Shown: piece by piece, positions 9,001 to 56,634 of the stretch
How the letters are laid out: each line of letters begins with the position of its first letter
Position numbering within the stretch: position 1 is the first letter of the stretch
NCBI GenBank assembly: GCA_051294375.1
Contig: CM119269.1
Coordinates: 10,227,056-10,291,055, forward strand
Reading direction: 5' to 3'
Origin: Paraspadella gotoi
Lineage: Eukaryota; Animalia; Chaetognatha
Length of the DNA: 64,000 bases
Notes under the pieces: model-generated
What the model saw: the letters and a program-made list of their open reading frames with translations, nothing else
Told to the model about the DNA's origin: nothing
Databases searched by the model: none
Translations under genes and position numbers: made by a program

Positions 9001-12000
9001 AATATTTGGATAAATAATATCTGTCGAATATTCAATTATAGAATATGTATCCGATCTTACTCTTTTGATCCTCTTGGTCTAAGTAGATGCTTGGATTTGG
9101 CTTCCAACCGTCATCGAAAACAGGAAAGTATGGAGCCGCATAGCCCGTCCATCGATCTTTACTTACGTACCAAGTCTCCCCAAGCGACATCCACAAGTGG
9201 TGCTCGCGAGAAGTCAAGCAATTTGACAGCAAGTCTGACAGAATATACAGAAGGCTTAATATTAATTATTATAAAATGTGGTACCCCTTTTTTGTGACCA
9301 GAATCTGTTCCCACCCAACTACCGGATCGAATTTCATGAAATTTTACATTTAGAGTTCTAATGACAATATAAATGGAACTATCCAGGCGAATTTTAATAT
9401 TCAGCCCCTGACAAGAGATACAGGGCCCTGGGCAGGCTAAATTTTTCTTTTTCATTTTTTAGAATTTTTTTAGTAGAATCAGGTTCTTTGATGTTTTAAA
9501 CATAAAAATATTTTTTAAAACTAAAATTAATAATTTTTTTGCTAATTAATCGGTGTTTGAAGATGCATGGTTCATCGTTTTTCTCCAAATTTTCCAGAAT
9601 TATTCCAAATCTGACTTGAACAGCTGATGTTCATGAAGCTGAAACTTATGGTAAACTAATATTTTTGTGGAAATAAATACAATTTTGTGGAAGAGTAAAC
9701 GTCTGGGCAACTGTTCAAAAAAAAAAAAAAAAAAAAAAAAAGTTTTGACTATTTTTTGCCCTTATGAGTGACCCCTACCGGGCCCCATATCTCGGCTCAG
9801 GGGTCAAATATTGAAATTCGCCTCAATATTTCAATCTGTATTCACATAGAGATCGTTCATACAAAATTTCATTAAAATCTATTAAATAGTTTTCTCGGAA
9901 CGTGTTCTGGTCACAAAAAGGGGTACCACATTTTATAATATGAAGCCTTCTGTATAATATACAGAAAGATTTATATTATAAAATGAAGTTGAGGTTTTTT
10001 GTGAACAGAATCTGTTCCGCAAAATCTACGAGATCCAATTAATTGAAATTTGATATAAACGATCCCTATGTAAATACAAATATAACTATCGAGGCGAATT
10101 TAAATATTTGACCCCTGAACCGAGATATGGGCCCCGGGGAGTCACCCAAAGGGGCAAAAAAAATGATAATTTTTTTTAAAAACATACGAGACGTTTACTC
10201 TTTCACAAAAACGTTTTTATTACTATGGCAACAGCCTCAGTGAGGACTCGTCTCACTGGCGCGGTTACCCTAGGACGGTCTCGCTTTGCCAACGCAGAGA
10301 GAAGTTGTTTGGACTGTGGATGGAACACAACGCCTGGGATGGTTCGTTCCACCTCTGAGCCAATGGGATTGGCTGAACGATGGTGGATGTGAGGCGGTGT
10401 GAATATACCACCACATTATCTTAATTTTTTGGTTCAGATTTTGAATATTCTGGAAAATTGGAAGTAAAACAATTTTTAATTAGCAAAAAATTAACTTAAT
10501 AAAAGGGCTTTATTAAGTGTTTAAGATGCTACTAAAAGAAAGAAAAAAACTTTTTAGCCTTCTTTTGGTCCGCCCAGGGGTCCAGGCACAGGGCCCTGTA
10601 TCTCCACTCAGAGGTTGAATATCAAAATTCGCCTCGTCATTAGAACACTGCGTAAAATTTCATAAAATTCGATCAATTCTGGTCACACGATCCCACTTTA
10701 TAATATGAAGCTTCTGTATTCAATTAAAAATAAAATTCTTTCATCATGTCTCGTGTTTCACTTCGTAATTAATGGTATTTATTACATTCTTGCTTAAAAA
10801 CTATTCTCACCTACTGCTTCCTTTATGAGCAACGGCGATACTACACCGCTTCCTAGCGGAACACCAGTCTTCGGATTTTTTGACGCTTCCATAACGAGCG
10901 ACAATGGTGTGAAGAGAAAATGAACCAATTCAGGAGAATTCGGATTGTGTATGTGGGGCTGTGTGAAATATAAAAATAATTTTAAGTAATATCTAAAGGC
11001 CTTGTAAAATATTCTTAAATATTGCCCGTTTCGTCACCATTGTTATTATATCATTATCCCCACCACTGGTCCTCCCAGTTATTTATGAAATTCTTGGTTA
11101 ACTAATGACCAACCTTGAGTTTTGCCAAAAGGTTGAAACAGAGTTTGAATTTCTTAAAAACTTTCTCAAATTCGGGCTCTTGTGGTGGAAGCGTCTGCGA
11201 GAGCAGCTGTTCTATTGCGTCCTTGTCCTTCTTGCTCTGGCGGTGAAACCCGGATTTTTTCTTTTTTTGACGATTTTCCAACTCTTTGTAGGCCTCGGAA
11301 ACGCGCTGAATAAAAGGAGAAAAATATTCAGAAAAATATTCAGATAAAAATATACTGCTGCAAGAAAGTTAACAGTTCTGGAGATGATACGTTGGATATA
11401 TCCTGCTTCTCTATCCTACATTTTCACTTATCAGGGAAATTGCATTGCAGTAGTCATTATCATTTGTCTTGATTTTCAAAAAAATTTTTAAATATTTTGT
11501 AAAGAAATGGGCGCTAAAAAATTTGACACGTTATGAAAAAAGCATCAGTTATAGGAGTTGCCATTAGATTTTTTTAACATTCATGATATCGATCGAACGA
11601 AAAATGAACCGTTTTTGTGCTGTAAGCACTTTGAAGTAAGTTCCATTAGAGCTGGACCTACCTGTATGATTAAGTACACAGACCTGCAACCTGGCGACGA
11701 ATGATTCAATGTCGTCGAAGCATTTGTTAAGCATGGTGACATCGTGGTCGACTCGTTCAACTTCGTTCGGCTCTCGAAGAGCGCCATCGACCCGAGGCTT
11801 AGTTCCAGAGAGGGCCGTATCATCACCGACATCTCGCAAGGTCGTTGACACGCTGGGGTGAGAGCCAAAGGGAGAGTAGAAGCGGGAACGGCGTGAAATA
11901 GTGCGAGGACGACGCACAGGAGAAAGCATAATTCAATATTGATATATTGACCAAATTCAACCTTAAAGCCTTTTATGTACAGCCCAGATTTGTCAATAAA

Positions 12001-13894: not shown

Positions 13895-14744
13895 AATAGA
13901 AAAAGTTGTGACTATTGGGCGATCGTGTTGTCGGGGCTTAATTTGAAAAGGAGAAAAATATCATAAATTAAAATTATTAAAACGGAATAATCGATATTTT
14001 TTCAATAATGAATTTCCAGTTATTATTACGATTTAGATTAAACAACTCACCGAAAAATTAAAATTTGCGATTTGGATGTAACTGGACAAATCGGTTCGTG
14101 TACCATACTAGAATAGAAAAGTGATCGATGTAAAAGCGGTCACGGGACAGGATAGGCGGCCTCCATTTAAAACGTTCCGATTTCGAGAGGCTGAGGCAGA
14201 TTAAGACGTAAATATTTTTTTTCAAATTCTTCACAAATAACAAGTAAAAAAAAATCAAATTCATGTATCATTTGATAAAAACGCGGAAAAGGTAGAACCA
14301 CCCATTGTTTTCCTAACGGAGACAAACAAACACTCGGATTGAAGGAGGAGATTTCGGTCGACGTCAGACTCCGAGCAAATTCGCTTTCGACGGGGACGAC
14401 GACGACTCGATTCAACAGAGCGAAATTCCAGAGAGAGAGAGAGAGAGAGAGAGAAGAGAAGAGAGAGATCTCAACGGGGCTTATTTATAGAATTAGAAGG
14501 ATAGGAACAGAGGGCGATCCTGGATTTCAATACGCTTGGGAGGCTCATGGGAAAATAAAAAAAAGATAAAAAAATTAAGTTTATTTCTTTACGAAAAATA
14601 AACATTAAAACCGTGACAACAATGATTTTAATAAAAACGCTGAATTTATCGGATAAGCTACACAGTCGAAAGATTTTTATTATATAAAATATTATTTAAA
14701 CATTATATTTTATTATAAACTTATTAATTATTATTATTAGAATA

Positions 14745-14945
14745 AAATTGGTGCAACCAATATAAAAATTATCCATTCATCTAAAAAATAAGATATCTTG
14801 CCCTTAACTTTGGACAGGTTTTGATGGTTTAAGGTCTCAATCACTTACAAGATAATGACATAGCAGGTCCCTGCAAGCTTTTAATAAAGATTCTCGCAAA
14901 GTCTCCCACCGTACCTGGTTTCCCTATCAATGAAATGGTATAATA
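14745..14945 (-). repeat. Unclassified dispersed repeat (family R4)
   Basis: Reverse complement of 24941-25157 (GATAGCTTATTTATTAAATGAATGGATAATTTTTATATTGGTTGTACCAATTTCATA end). Confidence 0.8.
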
Positions 14946-15024
14946 TTTCAAAAAATATTTTAATTGTATGAAAAGACCACTATTATAATATTATTTTTTA
15001 AAAAAATTATTTACATTATCATAT

Positions 15025-15270
15025 ACTAACTTACCCATAAACTTAATGTATCCTGAACCTACCTCTAATTTACCCCTCACCCTAATTTACCTTTAATCCT
15101 AACTTACCCCTAACTTACTCTTGACCCAACTTACCCCTAACCCGAACTTGCCCCTAACTTATTTTTAACCCTAACTTATTTTTATTCCTAACTTACCCTT
15201 CTTCTTAACTTACACTTAATCTTAATTTATCCTTTCTTAACTTTAATTTTTCAAAACCTAACATTAACCA
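15025..15270. repeat. Degenerate ~17-bp minisatellite (CCTAACTTACCCCTAAC-like)
   Basis: Repeated TAACTTACCC / CCCTAA units. Confidence 0.7.
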
Positions 15271-15914
15271 AATATTAATAAACAACAAAAATAAATATCG
15301 AAAAATTATGATAAAGCCGAATTCCTTTTTTTTCTTCCGATAAATTATCCTCCTCCGCTCCGTTTACGTTTATTCATTAAAAAAACCTTGCTCTTCGTTT
15401 TCCCAAAGACCTCTGTAGCGTAAATGACCAAATTATGGATGAAAATTTTAGCCACGGAAGGTCGTGACGACGAGTGTAAAGAACCTCCCATCCTCGACCG
15501 AGCGGAGAGGGAGAAGACGTCGGGAGAGAAACTGTACTGAAGACCGGGATCGCGGGCGCCGTAATGTTTATAAATAGACTTATCCACTGTTGAGGATGTT
15601 GATGTTGATGTTGATATTTAGTACCTTAATAAAATAATCAAAGCATATAGATATTCCATTGCTTTTGCCGAAAAGTGAAAAGACTATCTAGCGGAGAGGG
15701 AGAAAACGTCGGGACAGAAACCACCCTCAAACCCGGAGGCATCCAAGTTCTGCGAGATTTTGCAGGCCTTTCGGCATGGGTTTTTTTTTCTGGAAAGAAA
15801 AAGACAACAAAATAAATGAGGTAGTTAGGTCGTCCAAAAGGGTATCAAAATATAAAACAAAATCCGGAGAATCACAGGAATGGACTATCAAAAAAAAATT
15901 GTGACAGCTGTTGG

Positions 15915-16085
15915 GTTAAAGAGTTGATCGACGTCTCCGTCAACATCTGGAGTCGGGTGAGAGGGATTGCGGCTGAGAAGGAGGGCAGCGTTACCCTTCA
16001 GCATCAAACTGCCGAGGCGCTGGAAAACATGGCGAACCGCTGTCCCCTCTCGATGGAGCCTTTGAGTTGGTTTATTCTTCAACGC
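15915..16085 (-). mobile_element. 3' fragment of a CRE-clade (REL endonuclease) non-LTR retrotransposon
   Basis: Translation EGTAVRHVFQRLGSLMLKGNAALLLSRNP matches the QRLS..L.RGNA C-terminal signature of CRE-type ORFs. Confidence 0.6.
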
Positions 16086-16735
16086 ATCCCATTAGATGAG
16101 AGAGAGGGGATAGAAATAGAACGAGATCCAGACCAGAGCATCGTCACCGCCACCGGAGCCGGAGGATGCTCCTCCTCCTCCTCCACCTCCTCTTCCGTCT
16201 TCAATGTCGCTCTCGTCAAAACATTGTTCTTTTGTTTTCAGGATGAGCCAAATCTGACTCAGCTCAAATTAATAATAATATCTATTGTCATTATTGAATG
16301 TAAATTAGTATAAAACTTATTAACTCATTTATGTTGCTGTTTTCCTTATTTTCTTTACAGAATAAAAAATATTACTCAATTTGTACCAATAATAAGCGAA
16401 ATTACGTACGACTAGTTCGAGTTTAACTATTAAAAAACTACTGAAATATGATTAATTTCGAGTTGATGCCGCTTTGGACGACCGAATTACTATAAAGTCC
16501 AGACGACTATCTGCAACTCGGATTCTCTTTTGTCTCGGTCAAGAGAGATATCGAATTTCGTCTCATAATCGGTCTCTCGCGATTATTCATAATTCTGCTT
16601 TGAAACGGGACTCTTCCCAAAAATAATAAACGTTTGTGGACGCTTAGTGGTTTCTTCGTGGTTTGTTGAATTGTTTAATATTGCGTTGAAGAGGCTGGTT
16701 TTACAGGGCGCCACACCCGCAGCGGTGTCACCTCG

Positions 16736-16948
16736 TGGCAACAGCGAGACTGCATGTTCATGTAGTCCAGAGCTTTGGATCTGGCCGTAGGCCCTTGCCT
16801 ACAGGCGGGTTACCCGGTCCCTCCCACTTTCTACATGACAACCTCAGGGCTCGAACCAGGGACGCACATTGGGATGGTGCATTAGTCCACTGAGCCACTG
16901 AGGCGCTGCGAAAGAAACAGCTTTAATCCATCTGTGGTGATAGGACCA
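16736..16948 (-). mobile_element. tRNA-derived SINE-like element with twister ribozyme, subfamily A copy 1
   Basis: The minus strand reads A box TGGCTCAGTGG and B box GGTTCGAGCC inside a CCTCAG/CTGAGG stem, then the twister motif and a GCTGTTGCCA tail. Confidence 0.8.
16759..16837 (-). ncRNA. Putative type-P5 twister ribozyme (A1); predicted cleavage between 16812 and 16811
   Basis: CAUGUAG-AAA-GUGG-GA-GG-GACCGGG-U^AA-CCC-GCC-[UGUAGGC AAGG GCCUACG]-G-CCAGA-UCCAAAGC-UCUGG-A-CUACAUG. One T1 mismatch. Confidence 0.7.
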
Positions 16949-17079
16949 ATAGACAGCCGCCCCCAGGACTCTCACTATGAGAGTACGAAGCAGGGGATGA
17001 AGCGCATGTCTCTTTGCTGAACCTCTCTTCATTCTGGTGGCTTATGCGTTGAGTGGCAGCTGCATAGTTCAAACCACAT

Positions 17080-17281
17080 CAGCGAGACAGCATGTTCATT
17101 TAGTCCAGAGCTTTGGATCTGGCAGTAGGCCCTTGCCTACAGGCGGGTTACCCGGTCCATCCCACTTTCTACATGACAACCTCAGGGCTCGAACCAGGGA
17201 CGCACATTGGGATGGTGCATTAGTCCACTGAGGCGCTGCAAAAGAAACAGCTTTAATCCATCTGTGGTGATAGGACCACCA
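17080..17281 (-). mobile_element. tRNA-derived SINE-like element with twister ribozyme, subfamily A copy 2
   Basis: Near-identical direct repeat of 16743-16948, with an 8-nt deletion in the A-box region. Confidence 0.8.
17097..17175 (-). ncRNA. Putative type-P5 twister ribozyme (A2); predicted cleavage between 17150 and 17149
   Basis: As A1, but GA-UG gives full T1 pairing with CA of loop UCCAAAGC. Confidence 0.72.
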
Positions 17282-17547
17282 GAACGTACTTGATTAATTA
17301 ATGATTACGTCTAACCCCCCCCCCGTGTCCTGGAGGGGTTTCTTCATTACCTCATTTATGTTGTCCTTTTTCTTTCCAGAAAAACATTTTTCGAGTATAA
17401 TTATTATTAACGTTTCCGTTTTCTTTGACGTATTAAGTGTTCGTAATTTCTTTCGTGAACAATTAACAGATGCACTGCCGCGACGACCACGGAGTCAGGG
17501 GGGGCCGACACGACCGGATTCGAGATAAAATCCACTCAGAGGCCCAA

Positions 17548-17978
17548 CTCGCCTGCCTCAACCCGAAGAAGGAAGCTCCTGGTCTTCTCCCTTGATCCCT
17601 ATCTCGACCCGCCGATATCTACATCCCTAATTGGATAGACGGCCAGAAAATAGCCTTTGATGTATCCGTCGTCTCCCCTGTCCAGGAGGCCATAATCCTC
17701 CAAGCCGCCATGGCTCCTGCCGCCGCCATTGAGATGTGGAAATCTGCCAAAATGCGCGGCCATTTCGCCAACTGCCAGGCCCAAGGAATACACTTTCAGC
17801 CTCTCATAGTGGAAGCCTTCGGCGGTTGGGACAAGGAAGCCCTGACCTTTCTTAAAGCCCTTGCCCACCTTGACGATGGGGAAAAAACAATTCCTTATAA
17901 TTTAAATACTTTTTCCAATTCCTGTCCGTTGCCCTTCAACGAGGCAACGCAGACCTGCTGATAAACCGCGACTATTAA
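17548..17978 (+). mobile_element. Decayed 3' fragment of a CRE-clade non-LTR retrotransposon (restriction-like endonuclease domain)
   Basis: Translation RPADIYIPNWIDGQKIAFDVSVVSP...K..K...FQPLIVEAFGGW...FQFLSVALQRGNA, with in-frame stops and a frameshift. Confidence 0.85.
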
Positions 17979-19194: not shown

Positions 19195-27577
<8,383 letters not shown>

Positions 27578-27714
27578 TGTGCACGATTTTAAATTCAATT
27601 TGCCTGTGTCGGAACCATGTCCTCGTCAAGCTAAATTTTTTCAAAGTTTTGTTACGTTTTCCTTGTTGATTTTCAGATAAATTCAGTCTTTCCATCAGAC
27701 TGAATATTATTCTC

Positions 27715-36062: not shown

Positions 36063-38317
36063 ATGGATGTGGAAGAACGCCACGGGACTAAAACGTAAGT
36101 ACAAGAAATGGCATAATGATTTTACTGACTCTGACTTGTAAAAAATATCAATCATGAATTTGAGGCAAATTTCAGACCTGAATCTCCGGCGCCCGAGGAG
36201 ATTGTCGCCCAAGAAGAGTGTAAGTTGAAGAAGAAATTTCCCACGGCAGTACATCCGGGAGGTTCATTATTCCTACAAAAAAAACTGCTGCAGCGAGATA
36301 AAAAGTACTTTGACTCGGGCGACTACAATATGGTCAGGGGTCAGGCAGCCAAAGGGCCTCAGCCCAAGTTAAAGGTATAGTCAATTATATAATTATTTTA
36401 TTATTATTATTATTATATAGAAGTATTGTTAATTGAAGCCTTTTGAAAAAAAAAAAGGGCAAGACGATAACTGGAGAACGTTTAGTGGTACCCGACGATC
36501 CTACGGGGGAAAATCACCCTTCGCCCGACCTCATTCCGCAAAGGAAAGTGTCTGTCACCCAGTCGAAACTCGTTCAGTCACCGACGTCATCTCTTCCAGG
36601 TTAATTCAGTTTAAACTATATATGATGGCAACAGCTATGTTGCCTGTGATGCCCATTGGGATGGGGCATGTCACTGTTGACTTTGGGGGCTTCCGACCCT
36701 CAGTGACGCCTCCTGTCACTGGCGCGGTTACCCTTGGGTGGTCTCGCTTTGCCAACGCAGAGAGAAGTCGTTAGGACTGTGGATGGAACGCAATGCTTGG
36801 GTTGGGATGATGCGTGTTCCCCCTCTGAGCCAATGGGATTCGCTGAACGATGGTGGATGAGAGGCGGTGTGAATATACCGCCACAATATAATAGAATGGA
36901 GCGATCAAAAGATTGAGCAATTGAACATTATTTTTTTGATGCCTTTGTAAACTAAATTTATAAACCAATTTTATATCCTAAAAAAAATTAAAAAATGTTA
37001 TTTAAAAATTTAATATTTAAATTGCAAAAAGTGATTGAAACGTTTCAGGATTTAATAGTTTTTACTACAGAGGATAAAAAGTCCTGAATTTTTACTTTTT
37101 TTCCGGTTTTTATGTTGAAGACTGCCCAATCTTTTTTAATATGATTTATATTTTTGATCTAACTTTTTATAAGGAATCTAAATCTTTAATTAGAAACAAC
37201 TCTGATAAAATGATAAAATTAAATCTTTTGATATAAAATTTGTATTATTCTAATCCATGGACAAAGGTGTCAATTTTCCATATCAGAAAACTGTACAAAA
37301 ATCGGGTTTTTAGTCGGATCTGCTTATCAGCAGATCCCGACTCTATAATTCACTTTGTTGGTCCGTCGGTCTGCCCCCTCAATCTTGTCGGGAATCGACT
37401 TATATCAGGTCAGAATATCGAATTATGATAAATTATAGGAAAAAAATGTCTGTCTGTCCGTCCCACCTTAGCAAAAAACTTTAATTATTCGTGATTGGAT
37501 GGATGGATTGGAACGAAATTTTGTGAGTGGGTTGGAAAGTGTGTAATTGAGCTGGATATGAAATTTTGATAGCATAGTGCGAGTGGAAATGAGTTTAAAC
37601 GGAAAAAACAATAAAATATATTTCACTATTTGAACGCCAATTACTCATAAGTGGATGGGGCGATTTTATTTAAAATTTTGTATATGGGTAGAGAAGTGTG
37701 TCATTAAGCTGGAAATCAACTTTTGATGGAATCGTCTAAGTGGAAATGAGTTTATATGGAAAAATAAAAAACCAGTTTTACTAATTTATTATGCTTCTTT
37801 TTCTTAAATTAAATATTAAATATAAATGCAAGATTTATTAATTAATCAAATAATTAATCAATTAATCTATTAGTAAATTAATGAATAATTAATAAATCAG
37901 TCAATTAATAATTCAATTAATCAATTCATTTATCTATTAATTAATTATTCAATCAATCAAGTCAATCGTTATCGGCATTGTCGTCGTCGCCATCATCATC
38001 ATCGTCGTCACTTTTGTTTGAGGAAAAGACCTCAAAACAAATATTTTGGTTCAAATTAATTAATTAACTTGAATTAATAAATTAATTAATTACCGCTAAT
38101 GATCGTGGGCAGATCCGACATTGTTTGCTCAAACTTGTTCATTTTTGAGTAATAGAGAAATCCGTCGGTCAAAATAAACAGAAAATCGGAGCTACTTTTG
38201 AAAACCTTTTTTAAACTAATTTAAATAGTGTTCAGTGTACTCTTTTATTTTATAGGCACGGAGCATCCAATGATTCAACTCACACGTTCACATCCTCTTC
38301 CGGCTACCCTTAATTAA
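36063..38317 (+). CDS. ENSA: Alpha-endosulfine / ARPP-19 family protein, 4 exons
   Basis: [10 protein letters not shown]...[25 protein letters not shown] (Greatwall site FDSGDY) and [17 protein letters not shown]. The exon 2/3 junction is ambiguous (see findings). Confidence 0.93.
36625..36885 (-). mobile_element. SINE-like element with twister ribozyme, subfamily C, full length, in an ENSA intron
   Basis: 5' hairpin GGCGGT..ACCGCC, A-box-like TGGCTCAGAGG, B-box-like GTTCCATCC, twister motif, ATGCCC/GGGCAT hairpin and GCTGTTGCCA tail. Confidence 0.8.
36676..36756 (-). ncRNA. Putative type-P5 twister ribozyme (C1); predicted cleavage between 36730 and 36729
   Basis: GUUGGC-AAA-GCGA-GA-CC-ACCCAAGGG-U^AA-CCGC-GCC-[AGUGAC AGGAGGC GUCACU]-G-AGGG-UCGGAAGC-CCCC-AAA-GUCAAC. 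T1 is GG/CC. Confidence 0.75.
37306..38140 (+). mobile_element. DINE-1/Helentron-like non-autonomous element (family R1), most complete copy
   Basis: T-run flanks, 5' subTIR GTCGGATCTGC with nearby inverted copy GCAGATCCCGAC, GTCY microsatellite, duplicated core, 3' subTIR GCAGATCCGAC, then hairpin GTTTGCTCAAAC. This is the HINE/DINE-1 architecture. Confidence 0.75.
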
Positions 38318-42080: not shown

Positions 42081-45000
42081 ATGTGGACATTGGTGCCCTT
42101 GACTTTCTTACTCCCACTTACTCTGAGCGCCCCCGTCAAAAACGCCGTGCCCGCCGACCATCCCAGCGAAGATGTTGGGGATCCGAATGATGTTAAGGTG
42201 AGAAAGCAGAAGTCGCAATTGTTCAATTTCGATTTTACGGATCCGTTCAATCTTCAATTCAATTTGGCTACTTTTTCGGTATTCTATAACCAAGGTGGAC
42301 ACAGGCCTCGAGTACGACCGCTACCTCCGCGAGATCGTCTCCGTGTTGGAGCAAGACGAACAGTTTCGCCAGAAACTCGAAAACACTTCCATGGACGAAA
42401 TTAAGTCCGGAGTGATCGCCCATCAACTCGACTACGTCTCCCACAACATCCGCACCAAGCTCGATGAAATTAAGCGACGAGAGGTGACGAGGCTACGAGA
42501 CCTAGCCCGTCAGAAACGCGTGCTCGACAAGATGGGCGAGGTCCAGGCTCACGACAAGCTCTTCCCCTCTCACCTCGACCATTCCAACCCGCACACTTTC
42601 GAGACGGAGGACTTGAAGAGGCTCATTAAGGAGGCGACAAAGGACCTGGAGGAGCAAGACAAACTGAGAAAGGAGGACTTTAAAAGGTGCGAGTCAGAGG
42701 CTTTTGGCCAATTCGTTGTCGGTCTATCAATTTAAAATCTATGAACCCTCTTCTTGACCCGTGGGGAAAGGAAGACGACGTCGGGAGTAACCGTCCACTT
42801 GTCTTCTTCAAAATGAAACCTTAAAAAGTACAGAAGGCTTCATATTATAAAATGAGAGGTACCCCTTTTTTGTGACCAGAACACGTTCCGAGAAAATTAC
42901 TGGACCAAATTCATTGAAATTTGGTATGAATGAAAAATACAAATAAAACTATCGAGGCGAATTTCAATATTTGACCCCTGAGCCGAGATATGAGCCTCCA
43001 TAGGAGAGAGAAATGGTCAAAAAAAATTTTTTTATTTTTTTAACAGATGTACAAACGTTTATTCTTCGACAAAAACATATTTATTACCACAAAAATATTT
43101 GTTTACCTTAACTTTCAACTTCATGATCACAAGCTGTTGAAGTTATATTTGGAATAATTTGGGAAAATTGGAAGTAAAACGATGAACAATGAATCTTCAA
43201 ACAAAGCTTCATTATTGAAAATTTAGCAATTTTAGTTCTAAAATGTTTTTTATATGTTTAAAACGTTAATGCACCTGATTTGCTTTTTTTTGGCCTTCCG
43301 GGGGTCACCCCCAGGGCCCTGTATCTCTTGTCAGGGGTTGAATAATGAATATCAAAATTCGCCTGGATAGTTCCATTTATATCGTCATTAAATTCGATCT
43401 GATAGTTTGGTGGGAACAGATTCTGATCACAAAAAAGGGGTACCTCATTTTATAATATGAAGCCTTCTGTAAAGCGTTTGAGATATTCCTATATAAGCTA
43501 GTAAACACAAAAATTATTATGCCATAAAAAATGATTATTGAATAACAAATTAACCAGTAAACTGAACTGTTACTGCGGCACTAATAACATTTTGGTACTT
43601 AAATTTAGGGGGTATACTGAAAAATGAATAGAAAACGAATAAACTTTAATGAGTCAGAAAGCCCTTAAAAAAATGAAGAGAATGATATACTTACGAAAGC
43701 TCTAACATAAAAATTAAGCTGCCCAGTCTTGGTTTAATTAAGAGAGTCAAAAGTTAATTATCTAAAATTTTAAATCTTTTTTAAAATATATGACCCGTTT
43801 AAATTATTATAACATAAAATATTATTATTTATATAAGTATCATTAAAGAGCTTGAAAAAAAGAGATTTAAGATAGCCAATCACAATTTGATAAAAATCCT
43901 AAATTTACCCTCGAGCTATTGATTTTTGGAAAGATGTCTTGTTTTTGAGTATCCTAATTAAATTAAAGCTGGGCCGGTTAAATTTTATACTACAGTATTT
44001 GTAGGTATGTCATTCTCTTTAGATTTGAAAGGGCTTTCAGAAGATAATAATATTAATATTATTTTATTTAAAATTTCTTCAGAAAACTTACTGAAAGTAA
44101 GAGAAAAAAATTGAATCTAAAAAAAGTGAGTTGGAAAATGAAATCCGATTTTACAAGCCAAGTTTCTCCACTCATTGTCAAGGCATATCTTAACTGATCA
44201 AAATAAAATTTGAACACATAAATGATTTTAATCTTTTCTACTCAATTAATTTTTAAAATCAATGAAATAACCACTGGTTTGCAAATGACAGTGTATTTCG
44301 ATCGGCGCTTGTAAAATTGTCACCATGTAGATGGTCGTCGGTGACCAGGTTGTTGAATTCTGCCAATCCCAATAATTCCATCCCAATGGTGCGTTCTAAC
44401 CACAGTCCAAACGACTTCCCCCTGTGCTGGCAAATCGAGACCGGCTTAGGATAATCGCGCCAGGCGGCGCCACTGGGGGTTGGAAGGCCCTAAAGTCAAC
44501 AGTGAGACGCCCCATCCCAATGGGCATCACAAGTAGAGTTCCGATAACCGTTAACAGTTAACAGTTATTAAAGGTTAAAAATAATTAACCGTTAATATAT
44601 TTATTTTAACGGTTAAATTCGGTTAATTTTCAAGTATGATTTTTGTTATTTTTTTGTTATGAAAACTTTGATTTTTTAAGAGAAAAGTTTTTTTCCTGTC
44701 CTCTCTTATTCTCTCCTCTCCCTTTCTCACTATATTTTTCCCCCTGTCTCTTCTAAATTTTTTCCCTTTTTTTTCTTTTGTTATTTTCAACCCTTTAAAC
44801 TTTTTCTATCCTAATCTCTTATCATTTTTTTCTGCCCTTCCAGTATTTTTTTTAACTTACTTTTATGGTGGACTAAAATCCACCAACCGTTCATCAGCGG
44901 CCATTGGTGCCGGAGGCAAGTCATTCTCCTCCTAACCCAAAGGTCCGGGGTTCTAGCCCGGTGGCCGCCTAGCAGTTAAGAGAGACGGGGGCGCTTAACC

Positions 45001-48000
45001 CGCCTGTAACATGGTGTTACAGCCTGATCCGAAGCTCACGGACTGCTTATATTGAACGGTTCTGTCACTAACACATAACAATAATTACTGTCTCTTCACT
45101 TTCTCCTAATTGTTTTCGTTTTTCCTTTTAGCTAATTTTATACATTTACATCAAAGAATATTTTGAAATATAATATGCATCTGCATATATTTTCTTTCAA
45201 ATTAAATTCTTACATGCAATAATATTCTATTTTTATTTAAAAAAATAAATAATCTTTCTAATTTTATTTTTGATCAATCGATCATTCAACCATTCAATTA
45301 ATAAATTGATATTCATAAATAAACTTTGTTTTCTCTTGTTTACAAACAACGGGGTTTTTTTTTCATAAAACGGACATGTTTCAACTCTAGTTTTTCCGAG
45401 TCTACATCAGCGCGTGAGAGTCAAAACATGTCCGTTTTTTTTTAAATAAAAGCCCGTTGTTTGTAAACAAATAAACTTTGCTTTCACTTATCTATAAGCG
45501 CAACGAAAAGAAAGTCTTAACACAATATTCATAATTATATTTATATTTATGGTTATGGTTTATGAAAGACTAACAACAGAAAACATGCTTTCAAAAAACT
45601 AACAACTATAAAAATAATGAGGAAGAGAAATAGAAAAATAAAAAGCAAAAGAGAAAGAAAGAAAGAGAAAGAGAAAACAAAATATATACAGAATTAGAAT
45701 TACATTGTGCTTTTTATTTCATGAGTCAAAAGAAAGATTTATTATAATGCTTTATTTGATTAGCTGATGGGTAGATTCAAGATAGTTTTCTCAAACCAAT
45801 TTTCTCATTTATCAACTATAATGTGTACCTCATTTATCTGAAATAGAAGATAAAGACGATTCAGGAGCCGGAGTTAAGGAAAAAATACCATTAAATACTT
45901 TAAATATTAATATTTTAAATTTAAAGTTAAATTATAAAATTAACCGATTTTAATGGTTAACCGTTAAAAACGTTAGTTAAAAATTAACGGTTGACGGAAC
46001 CCTAATCACAAGCAACAACAAGAGAAAGAGCGCAAAATAATATCCGAATGATATTCTCGTTTTTCCTTAGATACGAAATGGACAAAGAGCATCTAAAAAG
46101 AGAAAAGTTAAAAAAACTGCCGGAAGAAGATAGGATTAAGGAAGAGAAAAGACTGGAAGAAATGGATAAAAAACACAAGGTTTGTATATAAAGTCAGGGG
46201 CAAGATAGCTTATTTATTAAATGAATGGATAATTTTTTTATTGGTTGTACCAATTTCATATAATATATATATAATATATAAATATTAAGGGAGTGGTCTT
46301 TTCATACAATTGAAACATTCTTTGAAATAGTATACCACTTCATTGACAGGGAAGCCAGGTACTCTTGAGAGTAAATAAACGAGACTGTGAGAGCTTGCAT
46401 GGACCTGCTATGTCATTATCTTGTAAGAGTGATGGAGGCCTTAAACCACCAAAGTCAGGGGCAAGATAGCTTATTTATTAAATGAATGGATAATTTTTAT
46501 ATTGGTTGTACCAATTTCATAGTATATATGATGTATAATGAGTGCAAGTGAATAGGTCTAAATGCTGACGAATTGTTTATTCCAGTGGCACAAAAGATAA
46601 ACTAAACCACTTTTAAATTCCCATAACGGGCTTCCAATTTACATAAACTGTCTCATATTATGAGTCATAATTCATAATGAGCTGCTTTTTTACTTGTCTT
46701 CTAAACGTTACCTTAACTTATCGTTTTACTTTTAGGGTAATTTCTCGTATCATTTTCTTCATGAGAAAACATGAAGATTCGTCAAAATATTAAAATACGA
46801 AAATACGAACTTATTGTCATCCGGTTTCCAGAGAAACAGATTTTACACATTTTGATTTTTTTTTTCATTTGTTTAAAGGATCACGAAAAGATCCACCATC
46901 CAGGTTCAAAGGATCAATTGGAAGAAGTTTGGGAAGAAACCGACAAACTCGACAAAAATGACTTCGACCCTAAGACTTTCTTTAAATTACACGACACAAA
47001 TGGAGACCAACATTTAGGTAACTATTATAAGGCTTACTTTTAAAGATTCCTTTAATGGAACGGGGGTAGGGGTGACGGAACGTCTGTGATGCCCGGGCTG
47101 TGAGGCATATTCCGAGCGAGGGCGATCAGTGCTTTAGACCTGCAGTGACCACCCTAGGTCACTGGCGTGTTTGTTCTAGTACCATCACACTTTCACCAGC
47201 GTGACGGTGAAGGTGTTGAGCTCGGAACTCGGGTAGAAATTGAGAACTTTGCGATCTAAGCCAATCATGACCAATTGACCATGCTATACTGATGGCGAAA
47301 TTATGTTTTCAGTAGCGCTACAAGTATTCGTATTTTCACTTATTGATAATAAGTACTTAATTCAGATATTATTGTTCAAACACTCTTGATTCTTAAGGCT
47401 TATATTTTTTGGGTTCATTTGTCTGCAATCAGAATAAAATTGGTCAGCAATAGAGATCCTATTATATTATTTCTAAATATGATTCTTTTTCATGTAACTC
47501 GGTAAACTGTAAAAATTTCAAAAAGAAAAAAAAAAATTGACATGTTTATGAAACATTGTTTAGTCATCAACCTCGTCCTGCAAAAATTGTTTTTGTTACA
47601 TAGTTTAGCTTTTTACTCTGTATTTTATCCGTCGTTGGCGACTTGATACAATAAAACTATGAGGACGATGATCCAAAGCAGCATTGTTAAGACTATGCCG
47701 TGAATAACCATTTTTTTTGCTTCCTTTCCTCGACGTTCGGCCAGTTTGTAGTTGCCTTGCAGTGCCAAAGTCTTGGATTCACTTGCACTCACCACAGCCA
47801 TGGTACCAAGACAAAGAAAGTTGCAACACAAACAAGTGATCCACGACAAAGTTAGATGATCTGAAATTTGTAAATAAATAAATGTAAATAAAACAATCTG
47901 CAAGATCTCTTATTGAAATTTACTTAAATAAAAGGACTATGATTCATACATTTCTTCTGGAATCAGGATTTTATTCAAAATTGTTGTCTATAAAATTTTC

Positions 48001-51000
48001 TATTTTATATTTGTTTGTGATGGAGGCTTTGACCCAGCAAAGCCTGTCCCAAGTCAGGAGGAAAGATAGCCCTTTTATATTGAATGAATGGATGATTTTC
48101 TTAAGGTTTTTACGAATTTCGTAGGTCGTTATTGGACGAAACATTTTACATTGTACAACGTTCTTTATTTTTTAAGACTTGATCTTCATCTCACTTCTTA
48201 TTCAGGTTTTAGGAATTTTCGCCGTTTGTTACCTCTTAATAAGTATAATGAAATATACTATAGTATATATATTATAATCTAAAAACCTCCTGTTAAATAT
48301 TTAGTTTGCTGTTATTATTGTTACCTGGAGGAATTTTTTTTTCGGGCATTTTCGGTTGATGAATGACTACCATTGGAGTCACAATTTGGTTGTATTCCAC
48401 AGATTTTTCTTCCATATCCTTCATTTCGTGGTTGAAAGATTATTCTTAAAAAATAATAATTGATAAAAAAAGTTGGTGGTTTATTTCGAATACCTACCTA
48501 AAATAAAAATGATCTGTCAATTGCCTTAATAAATTTGTTAAATATAATTAAATAGTCGTTCACGTTCCAGGGATATGCATTCGTTTCGATCAAAACCTTT
48601 TCTAATCACGTTGCCAGTTAAACAAGTCGTTCAACTTGCGAAATCACTCTGAGTAAAAAATTCCAGTGAGCGGATTAGCTGAATCGAAAGCTACCTTACG
48701 AATTCTGTTCCGAGCGTGACTTAACCAAGAGTAACGAACAATACGACCGCTCCTAGAATGTATTTTAAAATTGGATTTCCTTAACTAAAGAATAACATTT
48801 TGTCAGCCAATAAAAAAAAAAAACTTTTAAACTTTTACTTTCGCCACCCGGGGTTTTGGCCTCCTTTGAAAAACCATTAAAAAATATTTATTTTTAAAAA
48901 AACTAAAAAATTATTATCTAATTCCCCTCTTAACCCTTACAACCCCTAACGCTAAACCACACTCAACACTAAACCCCCCTCTAACCCCAGTCGGCGAAAG
49001 TAAAATTATGCTAAAAAATAGTGAAATTTAAAGAAAATAAAATAAAATCCTGATTTGATTTTTAGTTAGTTAAAAAACAATCTCGATTCAAGAAAATATT
49101 TTGATATAGTTGTGGTCGGTTATATACAAACATAATTTTGGTTTTACGAATAATATAAGACGGAAATGTACAATTTATTTTAGCTCTATATTTACATGCA
49201 TCTTTATTTCGTTGGCATAGATGAACTTGAAGTTGAAGCGTTGTTTGAGAATGAACTTTCCAAGATGTACAACGAGGATAATCCAGAAGATGATATGAAT
49301 GAAAAGGTGATTTCTATATATTTTTATAGTTTGATGTAATATTTTTATCTCAGATTTAAAGAAAATTACATTTTATTTTTGTCTGTAGGAAGAGGAACGA
49401 AACCGCATGCGTGAACACGTCTTCAATGAAATTGACAAAGACAAGGATTTTCTGATTTCCTTAGAAGAGTTCATTCGTGGAACTCAGGCTGAAGATTTCG
49501 AAAAGGATGAAGGCTGGAAGACGTTAGATGATGAAGAGGTAAACAGTCAACTGTTAAGATTTGTTTTTTAAGTTGCGCATATTTTTTGTAATGTCGGGTT
49601 GTTTGTGTTGAAACTTTGCTGAAAAGTGATCAACCATGAGACGTTTGTTATACATAAATTTCATAGTCATGTAGTCACGTGATAACAGGGAAATACACAT
49701 GAAAAGAAAGTCACAGTATGTACCGATCTTGTTGGAATTAAAACAAGTTTGAGCAAACAATGTCGGATCTGCCCACGATCATTAGCGGTAATTAATTAAT
49801 TAATTAGTTAATAAATTAATTAATTTGATCTGAAATATTTGTTATTAGGTCTTTTCGTCACTGACCACGACAAAAGCAACAAAGACAATGATGACGACGA
49901 CGATAATTATGCTGATAACGATTGACTTGATTGATTGATTATTGATTAAATAATTAATTAATAGATAACTAAATAAATTTATTGATTGAATAATTGATTG
50001 ATTAATTGACCGATTAATTTATTATTTATTAATTGACTAATTGATTAATTAATTAAATTGATTAATTAATACATCTTGCATTTACATTTAATATAAAAAG
50101 AAAAAAAAGCATAATCAATTAATGAAACAGGTTTTTTGTTTTTTCCATTTAAACTAAATTTCACTCAGACGATTCCATCGAAACTTAATTTCTAGCTTAA
50201 TCACACACTTTCCTACCCACATACAAAATTTCAAGTCAATCGCCTCCATCCACTCAAGAAATATATTTTTTGTTTTTCCATTTAAACTCTTTTCCACTCG
50301 CACGATTCCATAAAATCTTCATATCCAGCTTCCTTATCCACACACAAAATTTCATTCCAATCCATCCATCCAATCACGAGCAATTGAAGTTTTTTGCTTA
50401 GGCGAAACAGACGGACGGACATCATTTTTTTTTTTGCATAATTTATCATAATTCGATGTTCTAACATGATATAAATGACAAGATTGTGGGGGCGGACCGA
50501 CAAAGTGAATTATAGAATTATAAAATTATCGTACAATGTACAGTTACAAAGATTTGTAGCCAACTTACCAAAAAGTACATATTGAAGAGACGTAAGCCTC
50601 CCAGAAATATTTCACTTTCACAATTCTTTAGGTTCTCGCAGAGATTCTGGTTCGTTTTTTGGTAAGGAAAATGAATATGACGATAAGAAATATCGTAATG
50701 CGCTATTTATGGACTTTCCGCGCCCAATTTCTATGAAATATTACTTCCGGTTTGAGAATATGATAGGTTTTTGTTAAATATGGTTATTTATGAATGGTAT
50801 TATTGGGTTTTTTGTTATATTTGATTTAAAATACAATAATAAATTCTATAGATAGCAAATAGTAAACAAATTATTATAAATATACTATAAAATATTATAT
50901 AAATTGTTAAGTTATAATAAAAATTCTTAATTTTTTCCAAAATTTTTTATTTTCGAGTTGGTGGAAAACTGAAATGAATTTTTATTCCATCTAAAGCTAT

Positions 51001-54000: not shown

Positions 54001-56634
54001 TTAAAAACCTTGTTACAAACGGTTGACGACTGACGCGCAAGATGAATTTCGAATAATGACCTGTCAACCAGTGATTTTCCTCGATGGGTTCATACGAATT
54101 TGGCAGGAAAAAAGGTTGGTTTTTTCACCGTATCTCTTGACGGTGATTAGTTATTCCTAGGAAAAAATTCTTCTCCGTATCTCTCGATGGTGATTGTTCG
54201 ATGGCTTACCACAAATTTGAGGGAAAAAGGTTATTTTTTTCTCCATATCTTACGACGGTGATTGGTCGAGGCCGCGAATACAGGAACTAAGGTAAGGTAT
54301 ACTCGCTATCTCAATCTGATATGCGGAAAGGAACCGGATTGGCTAATATTAAAAACTATCTAAAATTAATTCTAAACTATCTTTAAAGATTGCACAAACT
54401 TATCATTATATACCTTTTAAACCGGAAGTGAGCGCCATATATTGGCGGGGAAAGTCCATCTAGAGTAACTTTAGAAAATTTTCTATATTATAGTCGTTTT
54501 CAACACAAAAAATAGTACCAGAAACTTTGCGAGAACTGTAGGAATTCTATAGGTGGATATTTTTCTGGGAAGTCTAAGAGACAGTAATAATTGTTATATG
54601 AAATTGGTACAACCAATATAAAAATTATCCATTCATTTAATAAATAAGCTATGTTAGTGACAGAACCGTTCAATATAAGCAGTCCGTGAGCTTCGGATCA
54701 GGCTGTAACACCGTGTTACAGGCGGGTTAAGCACCCCGTCCTCCTTAACTGCAAGGCGACCACCGGGCTAGAACCCCGGACCTTTGGGTTGAGAGGTGAA
54801 TGACTTGCCTCCGGCACCAATGGCCGCTGATGAACGGTTGGTGGATTTTAGTCCACCATAATATATATTTTTTCTGGATCTTTTGAACTATGGACTGTGA
54901 ACAGTTTAAGTGGTGGTCCCCCTTTATAATAATTTGATATCTATTTAAAAACTATGTATGAGAGATATAAATTTTAAGAGAAAAAAAATTGTGCAAATTC
55001 TTCAACCGCCATCAAAGATCAAAAACATTTTGCTTTCACAGTTAAACTTTAATGTAAGTGAAAATGTAATAGTATTTTTTTTTTTTTTGCTACTGCTTTA
55101 CATTTGAAAACCGAAAAATGCATACATGCTGATTTACGTTAGTCATGGAAAAAATTAAGCGTTTATCCCGACCACCCCTCACCCCTATCCCAACCAAAAC
55201 GTCCTTTTCAAGCAACAGCAATTTTCAGAGGACGAACTCGCCGCTTACGAGAAAGAACTGGAGAGGCGCGAGATGGACGAAGAGGAAAAACAAAGAAAGT
55301 TAAATGCCAAGCATGCAAAAGCTGCCGATAACATGGTTAGTAAAATAAATAGCAGAGGGGAACGTTAGGTTATAGTTATATTTGGGCTAAATCGCAGATT
55401 CTCAGTCAACCTCTCACGACCTAACCGCTCTTACCTGATGGTAGTTAATTACACTCACAGTGTTTTTTTACTTTTATTACGTAATTTTTTATCGTCGCAT
55501 ATCGCTTTGCTGTTCGTTGCGACGATCTCGTAACGCTTTTTCGCAATAAGTGCGCGTAGGCGGTCGTCGTTGTTGTCGTCGGTCGTCGGTCGATGTCATT
55601 CAACTTATTGATGATCGCTCTTTTTTTATGATTAAGTTAATACATATTTCTTTTATTAGTTTTTTATCGTCGCAATCGCTTTGCGTTCGACGATCTCGTA
55701 ACGCTTTTTCGCAAAGTGGCGTAGGGTCGTCGTGTTGTCGTCGTCGTCGGCATTCCACTTATTGATCGCCTTTTTTATGATTAAATTTGGGTATATGAGC
55801 TGAAAGTTATATACGCTTCCCATCATCGATGTCCTTAAAATTGGGTCAGGACAGTTATTAAATATGTTTTGTTTACGTTTTATCAAAACAAACAAATATC
55901 CTCTATTTTATTTTTATTTCTCCTTCTCTCTCTCTTTATCTTTTAATTAAATGTAGTTATCTCTCTCTTTTTTCCCAGTGCTGATTTATCGGGGAAAAAA
56001 CCGAGTCTGCAGCTGGCTCTGAAGGGGCTTTTTCTTTTTCTCTCTTTCTCCTGCTGCCTTTTGATTTTTTCTTTTTTTCTGGCTGCCTCTGCTGCTGCCG
56101 TGCTGATTCGTCCGAAAACGATTTGGCTTCTTTTTTTTCTCTCTCTCTCTCTCTCTTTCTCTTTCTTTCTCTTTTTTTCTCTCTCACTCTTTTTTTTCTC
56201 TCTCTCTTTCTCTCTCTCTTTTTTAATTGATTTATATATAAAACATAATTTTCCTTTATCAAATTTGATTTTTTGAGTGTCAAAGTTTGTCATGGGTCCA
56301 TATTTTTTTATACAATTGCGACGATCCTTATGCTTTTAAGATTTTTTTATTATATATTTCTTTTCCATCACCGTCCGAAAAATCCTCAGACGGTTAATGA
56401 GAATCTTCTAGTATTTTACCTGAGTTTCAAAACCGTTATTTTTTCTCCTTTAAATTTTAGGAACTGGTCCGCAACGCTGCGGACGGTAATGTGGCAAGGA
56501 TGCAGGCCCAAGTCGCCGGCCAAGGGTCTCCAAATAATGGGCCAATCCACTTAGAAGGCCAAGTTCCACCGGGACCGCCACAGAACGAGGCTAAAGAGTC
56601 TTCAGTTCCAAAAGCTAAAAATCAAGATATTTAA
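42081..56634 (+). CDS. NUCB2: Nucleobindin (NUCB1/NUCB2 family), secreted EF-hand protein, 8 exons
   Basis: Signal peptide; [27 protein letters not shown]; [17 protein letters not shown]; [15 protein letters not shown]; [28 protein letters not shown]. Exons start at 42081, 42295, 46071, 46879, 49221, 49389, about 55212 and 56461. NUCB1 versus NUCB2 is not distinguishable by eye. Confidence 0.95.
42831..43469. mobile_element. Tc1/mariner-type MITE (family R2)
   Basis: About 50-bp near-perfect TIRs CAGAAGGCTTCATATTATAAAATGAG..GTACCCCTTTTTTGTGA, with TA flanks. Confidence 0.85.
44365..44533 (+). mobile_element. Degenerate twister-SINE, subfamily C
   Basis: Aligns to the reverse complement of 36640-36830. 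P3 is partly deleted and L4 is mutated to UUGGAAGG, which breaks T2. The tail is interrupted by the hAT element. Confidence 0.7.
44863..45098 (+). mobile_element. tRNA-derived SINE-like element with twister ribozyme, subfamily B copy 1
   Basis: 5' hairpin TGGTGGA..TCCACCA; tRNA-like head closed by GCGGCCA/TGGCCGC with T-arm CCGGG GTTCTAG CCCGG; twister motif at 44972-45046. Confidence 0.8.
44972..45046 (+). ncRNA. Putative type-P5 twister ribozyme (B1); predicted cleavage between 44996 and 44997
   Basis: GCAGU-UAA-GAGA-GA-CG-GGGGCGCU-U^AA-CCC-GCC-[UGUAACA UGG UGUUACA]-G-CCUGA-UCCGAAGC-UCACGG-ACUGC. P2 is weak. Confidence 0.62.
45337..45470. repeat. Palindromic MITE-like element
   Basis: Arms TTGTTTACAAACAACGGG..CGGACATGTT / AACATGTCCG..CCCGTTGTTTGTAAACAA. 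A related palindrome lies at 57440-57690. Confidence 0.75.
47084..47297 (-). mobile_element. Twister-bearing SINE-like element, subfamily D (head degenerate)
   Basis: Shares only the ribozyme core and the downstream ATGCC../GGGCATCACAG hairpin with subfamily C. Confidence 0.65.
47121..47197 (-). ncRNA. Putative type-P5 twister ribozyme (D); predicted cleavage between 47173 and 47172
   Basis: GGUGA-AA-GUGU-GA-UG-GUACUAGAA-C^AA-ACAC-GCC-[AGUGACC UAGGGU GGUCACU]-G-CAGG-UCUAAAGC-ACUG-A-UCGCC. Perfect 4-bp P2 ACAC/GUGU; T1 is UA/UG. Confidence 0.75.
47625..48424 (-). CDS. CD225/dispanin-family (IFITM/PRRT-like) small membrane protein nested in a nucleobindin intron, 2 exons
   Basis: [33 protein letters not shown]|[51 protein letters not shown] plus a C-terminal TM segment; phase-1 GT-AG intron. 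Confidence 0.88.
48834..49003. mobile_element. MITE family R3 copy
   Basis: TTTACTTTCGCCACCCGGGG / CCCCAGTCGGCGAAAGTAAA TIRs. Confidence 0.75.
49742..50515 (-). mobile_element. DINE-1/Helentron-like element (family R1)
   Basis: Reverse-complement copy of 37306-38140. Confidence 0.72.
50593..54576 (-). mobile_element. Full-length hAT-superfamily DNA transposon (probably hATm group)
   Basis: Imperfect ~180-bp TIRs (TAAGCCTCCCAGAAA.. / ..TTTCTGGGAAGTCTA). Flanks AGAGAC-G and AGAGACAG look like a decayed 8-bp TSD. Three subterminal repeats at 54105-54270. Confidence 0.85.
51174..53898 (-). pseudogene. Intron-containing hAT transposase with apparent frameshifts
   Basis: Motifs HFDGK (D1), [10 protein letters not shown] (D2), LACLHH (CxxH), HHARWMA, RHTWYLS and [11 protein letters not shown] (E). 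Short GT-AG introns; frame breaks near 53610 and 52355. Confidence 0.85.
54577..54861 (-). mobile_element. tRNA-derived SINE-like element with twister ribozyme, subfamily B copy 2
   Basis: Reverse-complement copy of 44863-45098. The tail is interrupted by an R4 fragment (54598-54650) and by the hAT transposon. Confidence 0.8.
54679..54752 (-). ncRNA. Putative type-P5 twister ribozyme (B2); predicted cleavage between 54729 and 54728
   Basis: GCAGU-UAA-GGAG-GA-CG-GGGUGCU-U^AA-CCC-GCC-[UGUAACA CGG UGUUACA]-G-CCUGA-UCCGAAGC-UCACGG-ACUGC. T1 is CG/CG. Confidence 0.72.
55491..56341 (+). mobile_element. Helentron/HINE-like element (family R5) with a duplicated 5' module
   Basis: Homologous to 32601-33460; the 5' ~175 bp is present twice. 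Confidence 0.6.

Follow-up and report, generated by a model that had tools for sequence, protein, structure and literature searches.

A type-P5 twister fold under compensatory change in five families of short retroposed elements of the chaetognath Paraspadella gotoi

A 64,000-nucleotide stretch of the Paraspadella gotoi genome (assembly GCA_051294375.1, contig CM119269.1, positions 10,227,056 to 10,291,055 of the forward strand; hereafter the window) contains five families of short non-coding retroposed elements, A to E, each with a complete type-P5 twister ribozyme fold in the middle of the element. The twister fold is real and its type-P5 architecture is under compensatory change. The best explanation, to which we assign a probability of about one half, is that these elements are the twister counterparts of the Sm-alpha elements of Schistosoma and of the animal retrozymes, and that they would be copied from multi-unit RNA that has been cut and re-ligated.

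Five element families and their twister fold

The elements are short, dispersed and high-copy, with a unit length of 230-270 nt. The original prediction, made from the sequence of the window, had described eight copies in four subfamilies. Self-comparison of the window confirmed all eight in the same groups, namely A (at 16736 and 17080), B (44863 and 54577), C (10225, 36625 and 44365) and D (47084), but it also revealed a fifth, very abundant family, E, which had been overlooked. Family E is represented by seven pieces, lacks P3 and has the pseudoknot T2 changed to A-U, and the 3' extension of family A reaches 16687. The predicted common core parses in A1, A2, B1, B2, C2, C3 and D, as P5 - A-rich linker - P2' - GA - NN - short P1 - N^AA - P2 - GCC - P3 - G - P4 - UCNNAAGC - P4' - P5', while C1 has lost L4 through a deletion. 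The copies and their parts are the following, with predicted cuts marked by ^:

16687..17283, minus strand: family A dimer, consisting of A2 (17283-17077, tail shortened), a spacer and A1 (16953-16687, ending in ..CTCTTCA); predicted cut sites 338 nt apart
17097..17175, minus strand: type-P5 twister fold of A2, T1 UG/CA, predicted cut 17150^17149; equals the majority form of family A
16759..16837, minus strand: twister fold of A1 with a single T1 mismatch (GG/CA), predicted cut 16812^16811
16837..16909, minus strand: tRNA-like head of A1 with box A (16897), box B (16857) and, at the anticodon position, CCC; fold z -3.15
16954..17085, minus strand: spacer 5' of the A1 leader, repeated at about 1/10 of the A depth; runs on into other sequence in other copies
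44863..45098, plus strand: B1, full-length B copy with 5' GTGG hairpin and 34-nt leader, head 44897-44969, twister 44972-45046 (T1 CG/CG, predicted cut 44996^44997), tail ending in ..CTCTTCA
54576..54861, minus strand: B2, a copy of family B whose twister spans 54753-54678, with the predicted cut at 54729^54728; family E tail inserted at 54655-54598
36626..36886, minus strand: C2, full C copy with 5' hairpin, box A at 36832, box B core, twister 36756-36676 (T1 CC/GG, predicted cut 36730^36729) and hairpin-ended tail
10226..10418, minus strand: C1, family C copy, P4/L4/P5' deleted
44372..44531, plus strand: C3, family C copy, 5'-truncated and decayed, T2 broken
47084..47205, minus strand: D copy with its twister at 47200-47118 and the predicted cut at 47173^47172; L4 reads CA in the majority form, and the upstream DNA shows no repeated head
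24937..25156, plus strand: E2, family E copy, twister 25042-25104 without P3, T1 UG/CA, T2 A-U, predicted cut 25067^25068
14742..14992, minus strand: E1, full-length E copy, decayed, T1 mismatch
46190..46520, plus strand: the 3' stub E3a (46190-46259) and, behind it, the full-length copy E3b (46281-46520), in which part of P4/L4 is deleted
48017..48123, plus strand: E4, family E copy, 5'-truncated and decayed
8615..8672, plus strand: E5, family E 3' stub
517..598, minus strand: old and decayed D-like copy, aligning to D at 72% across 93 nt and scoring 11.8 bits (E 0.055) under model R1

A strict type-P5 descriptor, which requires GA-NN, N^AA, P2, RCC, P4, an 8-nt L4 and complementarity in both pseudoknots, was drafted after inspection of these copies, hence fitted to them, and gave five matches in the window (A2, B2, C2, D and E2), whereas 200 local dinucleotide shuffles averaged 0.075 and never exceeded two. 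A relaxed parse placed predicted cuts, with N^AA present, in nine of the 12 copies tested (C1, E3b and E4 failed), and the catalytic GA is invariant in all nine aligned copies. The resemblance to the twister consensus which had been predicted is borne out. Covariation was counted for nine pairs (T1, T2, P4 and outer P2) over this nine-copy alignment; P1, P3, P5 and inner P2 were excluded, since the alignment loses register in them. Altogether 88.8% of the 80 cells are paired, with two-sided change in seven of the nine pairs, and slid controls reached at most 47.5%. The pairing score was matched by none of 500 shuffles, a count that is no probability because the nine rows represent five related families and are not independent.

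Both pseudoknots, assigned by the rice twister numbering and checked against a twister review (PMC5408937) and the Rfam alignment, contribute to this result. T1, two pairs from L1 to L4, is paired in 16 of 18 cells and shows two-sided change in both pairs. Its majority state is UG/CA in A, D and E (for E as read in copy E2 of the window), that of B is CG/CG and that of C is CC/GG. T2, which joins the GC of L2 to L4, is paired in 17 of 18 cells and its first pair changes from G-C to A-U in family E. P4 is paired in 86% of the cells, with two-sided change in all four pairs, and L4 has 8 nt. The closing stems of P5 measure 5-8 bp and differ in sequence among A, B, C and E, the stem of the D copy being weak, and P1 has 1-3 bp across copies. 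P2, for which compensation had also been proposed, has 3 bp plus a bulge in A, B and E, and 4 bp in D; in C its first pair is C.A.

Majority letters across copies were taken from assembled contigs of four public runs mapped on 44300-47400 and 16690-17320; for 44300-47400 they refer to the best 40 of 138 letter rows and the best 15 of 343 joints. Among these rows, majority letters within stems restore pairs that are broken in single copies. In B1, 44983 mends P2 and 45039 mends P4 (the minority letter at 45039 is common to B2), and in C3 both 44427 and 44496 mend P5 and 44491 mends P4. In D, 47130 mends P4 and 47136 turns L4 into CA, which mends T1. At this last position (A>G) approximately 97-98% of the depth in runs X1, X3 and X5 reads CA and the UA of the D copy is a minority letter; there are therefore three T1 states and not four, and of the covarying NN states that had been proposed CA/UG, CG/CG and GG/CC hold, whereas the UA/UG of D was decay in one copy. 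The majority letter at 47173 of D places a U before the predicted cut, like in the other families. In the majority forms the catalytic G, the scissile A and both pseudoknots are intact, and we consider that the majority forms would very probably cleave in vitro.

Besides the relatedness of the aligned rows, several results weigh against this assignment. When the Rfam models were applied, as had been suggested, Twister-P5 (RF02684) did score E2 (25.8 bits, E 0.0014 in a 271-nt search), but E2 alone and under the gathering cut-off of 37.6, and families A-D gave no Rfam Twister match at E<=1 in the window scan, with none for A and D at E<=10. The minimum-energy folds of the B1, D and E2 cores prefer other pairings. 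Additionally, A and B close L4 with an A-U pair; a G-C pair at this place is called essentially invariant in the twister review, which also describes P1 as dispensable (PMC5408937). In favour of the assignment, natural twisters of type P1, the only type covered, tolerate defects in P1, P2 and P4 but not changes in the pseudoknots or the catalytic positions (PMC11662667). E3b (32 bits) and C1 (24 bits) are additionally recovered by a model made from these nine copies, as are, weakly, the D-like relic at 517-598 and E4. Relatives were sought by pattern in JGI metagenomes (19 matches, none with a twister context) and in IMG/VR (0, 15 and 0 matches in three scans, the 15 without Rfam match at E<=0.1), and model R1 gave at most 14.5 bits on 34 metagenome and viral loci that had themselves been selected by pattern match.

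tRNA-like heads, element ends and abundance

The original prediction regarded the whole group as tRNA-headed short interspersed elements (SINEs). A tRNA-like head is a feature of three families, A, B and partly C. A cloverleaf-like fold and a box B for RNA polymerase III (Pol III) are seen in A and B, and in A1 a box A accompanies the box B at a spacing of 29 nt. Matches to a strict box B number four in the window and all fall within A and B heads (shuffle mean 0.99, maximum five). The heads received no tRNA call from ARAGORN at default settings, and targeted scans of A and B1 gave no Rfam tRNA match at E<=10. B1 is the sole ARAGORN call in 64 kb at threshold 87, where shuffles give 2.4 calls, and A1 and A2 are among 33 calls at threshold 80; window-wide, the relaxed ARAGORN thresholds return noise. 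The anticodon is read as CCC in A, and the majority letter at 44933 likewise gives CCC in B. In C, the head consists of box A and a box B core only. Alignment of the heads showed that B and C are homologous (z 4.4), that A is weakly similar to C (z 3.0) and to B (z 2.4), and that E is unrelated. DNA upstream of D is at single-copy depth and E has no head, therefore the tRNA-like head is limited to the three families. Phage blastn matches of the heads (E 0.2-8; four of the eight A1 records on tRNA-Asn) were not used as support. Separately, the anticodon-arm-like hairpin of the A head (16856-16882, minus strand) recurs in the C tail (36643-36669, minus strand) with 81% identity over 27 nt; it may represent a recognition loop common to both, or else a further fragment of a tRNA.

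The elements do not start at the tRNA-like region, in contrast to tRNA-derived SINEs. A leader precedes it that has 34 nt in B, 44 nt in A and 34-47 nt overall, and C starts 54 nt 5' of box A. An internal Pol III promoter does not transcribe as much as 34-44 nt of upstream sequence. No run of T4 or longer was found in B1, C1, C2, D or, downstream of the A2 leader, in A, which is a weak test. Family E holds internal runs of T4-T6, and runs of this kind would stop Pol III.

High copy number, also predicted, was confirmed. In run X1 the summed depth was 5-8 x 10^5 for B and E, 5-10 x 10^4 for A, 3-9 x 10^4 for C3 and about 10^4 for D, versus 30-35 for unique pieces. This is 10^2.5-10^4 times the unique pieces and, although summed depth is only a rough guide and not a copy number, it suggests that the copies of each family number in the thousands to tens of thousands.

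The 3' ends are sharp, with 218 contigs of run X1 ending at 45098 and 358 at 46521. There is no poly(A); the elements finish in ..CA followed by an AT-rich flank, and CTCTTCA is the common 3' end of A and B. At the other end A, B and C start with a GTGG hairpin and the start of E is similar. Five of the seven E pieces are 5'-truncated at differing points and share a constant 3' end. E2 is flanked by a 21-bp direct repeat (19/21 identical), the sole case among 15 flank tests that beat all 500 shuffles, and empty-site contigs gave a target duplication of 4-5 bp for B1. The tail of an E element is inserted in B2 (54598-54655) and B/E joints occur in further contigs too, which suggests shared machinery or mutual targeting. 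Fixed 3' ends, 5' truncation, duplications and chimeras are marks of target-primed retroposition with shared machinery. Copies retain both ribozyme halves plus the leader, and depth is roughly even across B; the rows listed show neither a pile of loose ends nor a step in depth where the cuts are predicted. A hepatitis delta virus (HDV)-like ribozyme in the 5' hairpin was also considered and dropped by eye, since its helix closes too early.

Possible ways of spreading with an internal ribozyme

The ribozyme sits between promoter and tail, therefore the template should be cut and the element should not spread; a study of SINE composition accordingly predicted the loss of ribozymes from headed SINEs (Kojima 2018, PMC5786205). 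A cycle of cutting and re-joining, which until now has been described solely for hammerhead-bearing elements, could resolve this paradox. RNA spanning at least two units would be made from rare tandem or adjacent copies, transcribed by Pol III from the boxes of the upstream unit in A, B and C and by RNA polymerase II read-through in E. Such multi-unit RNA would be cleaved once per unit and then re-joined to become the template; a host RtcB-type ligase may circularise the unit, restoring the ribozyme and leaving leader and promoter inside. A candidate partner reverse transcriptase, Penelope-like or of RTE type, would start at a fixed internal site, giving the ..CA 3' end, and would insert at AT-rich DNA, mostly halting at the 5' GTGG hairpin, so that dispersed monomers result. 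Precedents exist for several of these steps, since RtcB circularisation of animal retrozymes has been reported (PMC7229834; PMC7761336), animal retrozymes have been linked to Penelope-like elements (bioRxiv 10.64898/2026.07.22.740005), a Penelope-like element combines an internal start of reverse transcription with AT-rich targets (PMC11167929), and Naiads, which lack hammerheads, prefer (TA)n (PMC8557442).

A re-joined multi-unit template fits our data because a leader lies upstream of the tRNA-like start and copies do not pile up at the predicted cut sites among the rows listed. The A locus is a dimer, no T4 occurs from the A2 head to the A1 end, and the spacer 5' of the usual 5' end of A is itself a repeated sequence. 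Tail-to-head joints were found in A (16971 to 16690) and in B (45098 to 44863) among the joints listed. Regarding the spacer (16954-17085, minus strand), other copies of it continue upstream into a motif that resembles the D/C tail, and one locus connects an A tail with the end of the spacer over a stretch of 180 unknown bases.

A number of observations count against the cut-and-rejoin cycle. The tail-to-head joints listed are at single-locus depth (36-40 in X1 vs 10^5) and tandem templates are therefore probably rare, the window containing one dimer whose A2/spacer junction is single-copy. The Pfam scan of the 115 reading frames of the window found no partner reverse transcriptase. Clear target duplications appeared in just one of the 15 flank tests, plus B1 by its empty site. 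An intron of the gene for the RNA polymerase largest subunit contains the intact E2 twister (25042-25104, plus strand) in sense orientation, a place where fast cleavage should be costly. Lastly, cleavage, circles and expression of the elements are putative; the runs are assembled contigs, from which starts, ends and level of element RNA are not readable.

Seven copies with both ribozyme halves or remains of them are in sense in introns (C1, E1, E2, C3, B1, E3b and E4, the E1 intron being placed from reading frames only). The strict descriptor was passed by one of these seven versus four of the five antisense or unplaced copies (A1, A2, B2, C2 and D; Fisher p 0.07, a post hoc comparison of small numbers), which hints at a cost of active copies in sense orientation, E2 being the exception. 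Run X7, which is RNA-like and includes a spliced nucleobindin joint, contains a 3622-nt contig at depth 160 with a diverged A-type twister core and no tRNA-like head. This contig matches window positions 17103-17186; an autonomous partner element and a host mRNA are candidates for its identity.

The original prediction spoke of a Pol III-driven, self-cleaving retroelement superfamily. A plain Pol III SINE cycle is not supported, given the leader of 34-47 nt, the presence of both ribozyme halves in the copies and the T-runs of E. A modified linear cycle, in which a real twister is slow or folds conditionally and only uncut RNA is reverse-transcribed, the ribozyme being a brake on turnover or copy number or else a compact fold recognised by a partner protein, is unlikely in our judgement, yet it is the most serious alternative. 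It would account for the prevalence of dispersed monomers with fixed ends and for the intact copy that lies in sense orientation within an essential gene's intron, and favourable competing folds exist in several cores, the whole B element having a long-range closing stem (z -3.1). However, it leaves the 34-47 nt upstream of the Pol III boxes unaccounted for, as well as the two-sided upkeep of the pseudoknots in five diverged families if cutting merely destroys the template.

Considerably less probable is an origin as bipartite SINEs derived from long interspersed elements (LINEs), according to which the twister came from the 5' end of an RTE element and is now a functionless fossil. RTE 5' regions do make up the middle of many SINEs (PMC5786205), RTE elements bear twister variants at their 5' end (PMC8501958; PMC7761336) and the 21-bp duplication suits a LINE-type insertion. 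Nevertheless, in headed SINEs the ribozyme would be expected to have been dropped, and here the catalytic residues and both pseudoknots persist in the majority forms; the Schistosoma variants take P1 from the target and begin at the cut, whereas a P5-opened fold would lose one half at a LINE 5' end and no copies piling at the cut were seen. It is very improbable that the families are non-autonomous DNA elements with terminal hairpins (rolling-circle or miniature inverted-repeat transposable element (MITE) type, such as Helentrons and MITEs) whose twister likeness is incidental. Both ends are fixed, a 5' hairpin is present, poly(A) is missing, insertion sites are AT-rich and clear duplications are few, as such elements would have it; but the compensation in the pseudoknots is strand-specific, Pol III boxes occur, terminal inverted repeats do not, and staggered 5' truncation with a constant 3' end and the 21-bp duplication point to retroposition.

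The cut-and-rejoin reading can be taken further, to a superfamily of twister retrozymes whose circular non-coding RNAs, with a tRNA-derived Pol III promoter and a permuted twister, would be cut, re-ligated and rewritten by a Penelope-like reverse transcriptase that primes internally, as exact one-round monomers. In this fuller form we consider the proposal tentative and rather doubtful. If true, it would be the first mobile-element role of type-P5 twisters and an exception to the expectation that headed SINEs disable a ribozyme passenger.

Among the other contents of the window, Pfam identified exons of nucleobindin, EPS8, the RNA polymerase largest subunit, endosulfine and CD225. Of at least 120 nucleobindin homologues, 16 share 73-83% identity and those from named species 60% or less, which points to a poorly sampled lineage. 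The CD225 exon (interferon-induced transmembrane family; 47628-47909, minus strand) is nested on the opposite strand in a nucleobindin intron. A decayed frame at 17460-17960 (plus strand), on the opposite strand from the adjoining A dimer, resembles the restriction-like endonuclease end of a CRE/R2-type retrotransposon, and we take the frame at 30840-31772 (plus strand) to resemble the brambleberry membrane protein; neither has a Pfam match. Broken frames at 51177-53950 (minus strand) look by eye like a decayed transposase, also with no Pfam match. An abundant AT-rich repeat with internal inverted repeats, foldback or MITE-like, occupies 5567-6086, 6670-7376, 37307-38139, 49742-50516 and 60909-62387, and a MITE-like repeat with long terminal inverted repeats is found at 9242-10223 and 42829-43471, one copy abutting C1.

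Relation to known ribozyme-bearing elements

The literature search gave no twister inside a SINE or retrozyme and no type-P5 twister in mobile elements, in agreement with the original prediction; most subscription journals, supplements and repeat databases were outside its scope, and unannotated examples may exist in the supplements to Kojima 2018 and to the retrozyme papers. The available parts of PMC8782182 and PMC10085705 contain nothing on SINE-borne twisters. For twisters, a single role has been demonstrated, in a Schistosoma LINE whose 5' end carries the ribozyme (PMC8501958). As a general design, a SINE of tRNA origin with an intact ribozyme inside it was already known from Sm-alpha, and a twister on a retroelement was known too, but the combination seems new as far as we found.

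The P5 permutation has been kept intact by compensatory change in five families and in tens of thousands of copies in all, although a template cut between promoter and tail should block spread. These families offer natural variants for a direct test, with three T1 states, two T2 states, and forms with and without P3 and with and without a tRNA-like head. They would also extend the retrozyme idea beyond hammerheads, and they supply natural type-P5 sequences missed by the Rfam model.

With regard to the ribozyme itself, our elements share with the type-P5 twister (RF02684, clan CL00120) the order of its parts, the catalytic G and A, N^AA, the 8-nt L4, T1 and T2 (PMC5408937; PMC11662667). They depart from it in a P1 of 1-3 bp, the bulged 3-bp P2 of A, B and E, the long P3 of A-D, the A-U pair closing L4 in A and B, scores below the Rfam cut-off and their location on animal repeats. 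The twister T-variants of Perere-3, an RTE element of S. mansoni, likewise tie a twister to non-LTR (long terminal repeat) retrotransposition in an animal (PMC8501958), but those sit at an autonomous LINE's 5' end, with P1 provided by the target, whereas here the fold is internal, opened at P5 and whole, and the elements are non-coding. Bipartite RTE/Vingi SINEs of the Bov-tA type resemble our families in that a tRNA-type head is combined with a middle module and the 3' end is defined, and in the exchange of heads and tails, as in the B/E chimeras (PMC5786205). In those SINEs, which lack the ribozyme-bearing LINE end when headed, an active ribozyme behind the head is expected to cause 5' truncation and hence to be absent (Kojima 2018, PMC5786205), unlike the intact fold found here.

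The closest parallels are with hammerhead-bearing elements. The window has no Rfam hammerhead match at E<=1. Animal non-LTR retrozymes likewise have short non-coding units, 150-400 nt long, each of which contains a single ribozyme and has a self-paired fold; their monomer fraction can be high and a Penelope-like partner has been proposed for them (PMC7229834; PMC7761336; bioRxiv 10.64898/2026.07.22.740005). They differ in being type I hammerhead tandems, reportedly promoterless, whose circles have been shown by experiment, while our elements carry a twister and, in three families, Pol III boxes. Sm-alpha and Sj-alpha of Schistosoma are tRNA-derived, apparently driven by Pol III and present in more than 10,000 copies, with an intact internal self-cleaving ribozyme, and multi-unit transcripts have been proposed for them as well (PMC6765202; PMC2770079). 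Their ribozyme is a hammerhead and they are often arranged in tandem, in contrast to the type-P5 twister, the mostly dispersed monomers with fixed ends and the five diverged families, two of them without a tRNA-like head, of Paraspadella gotoi.

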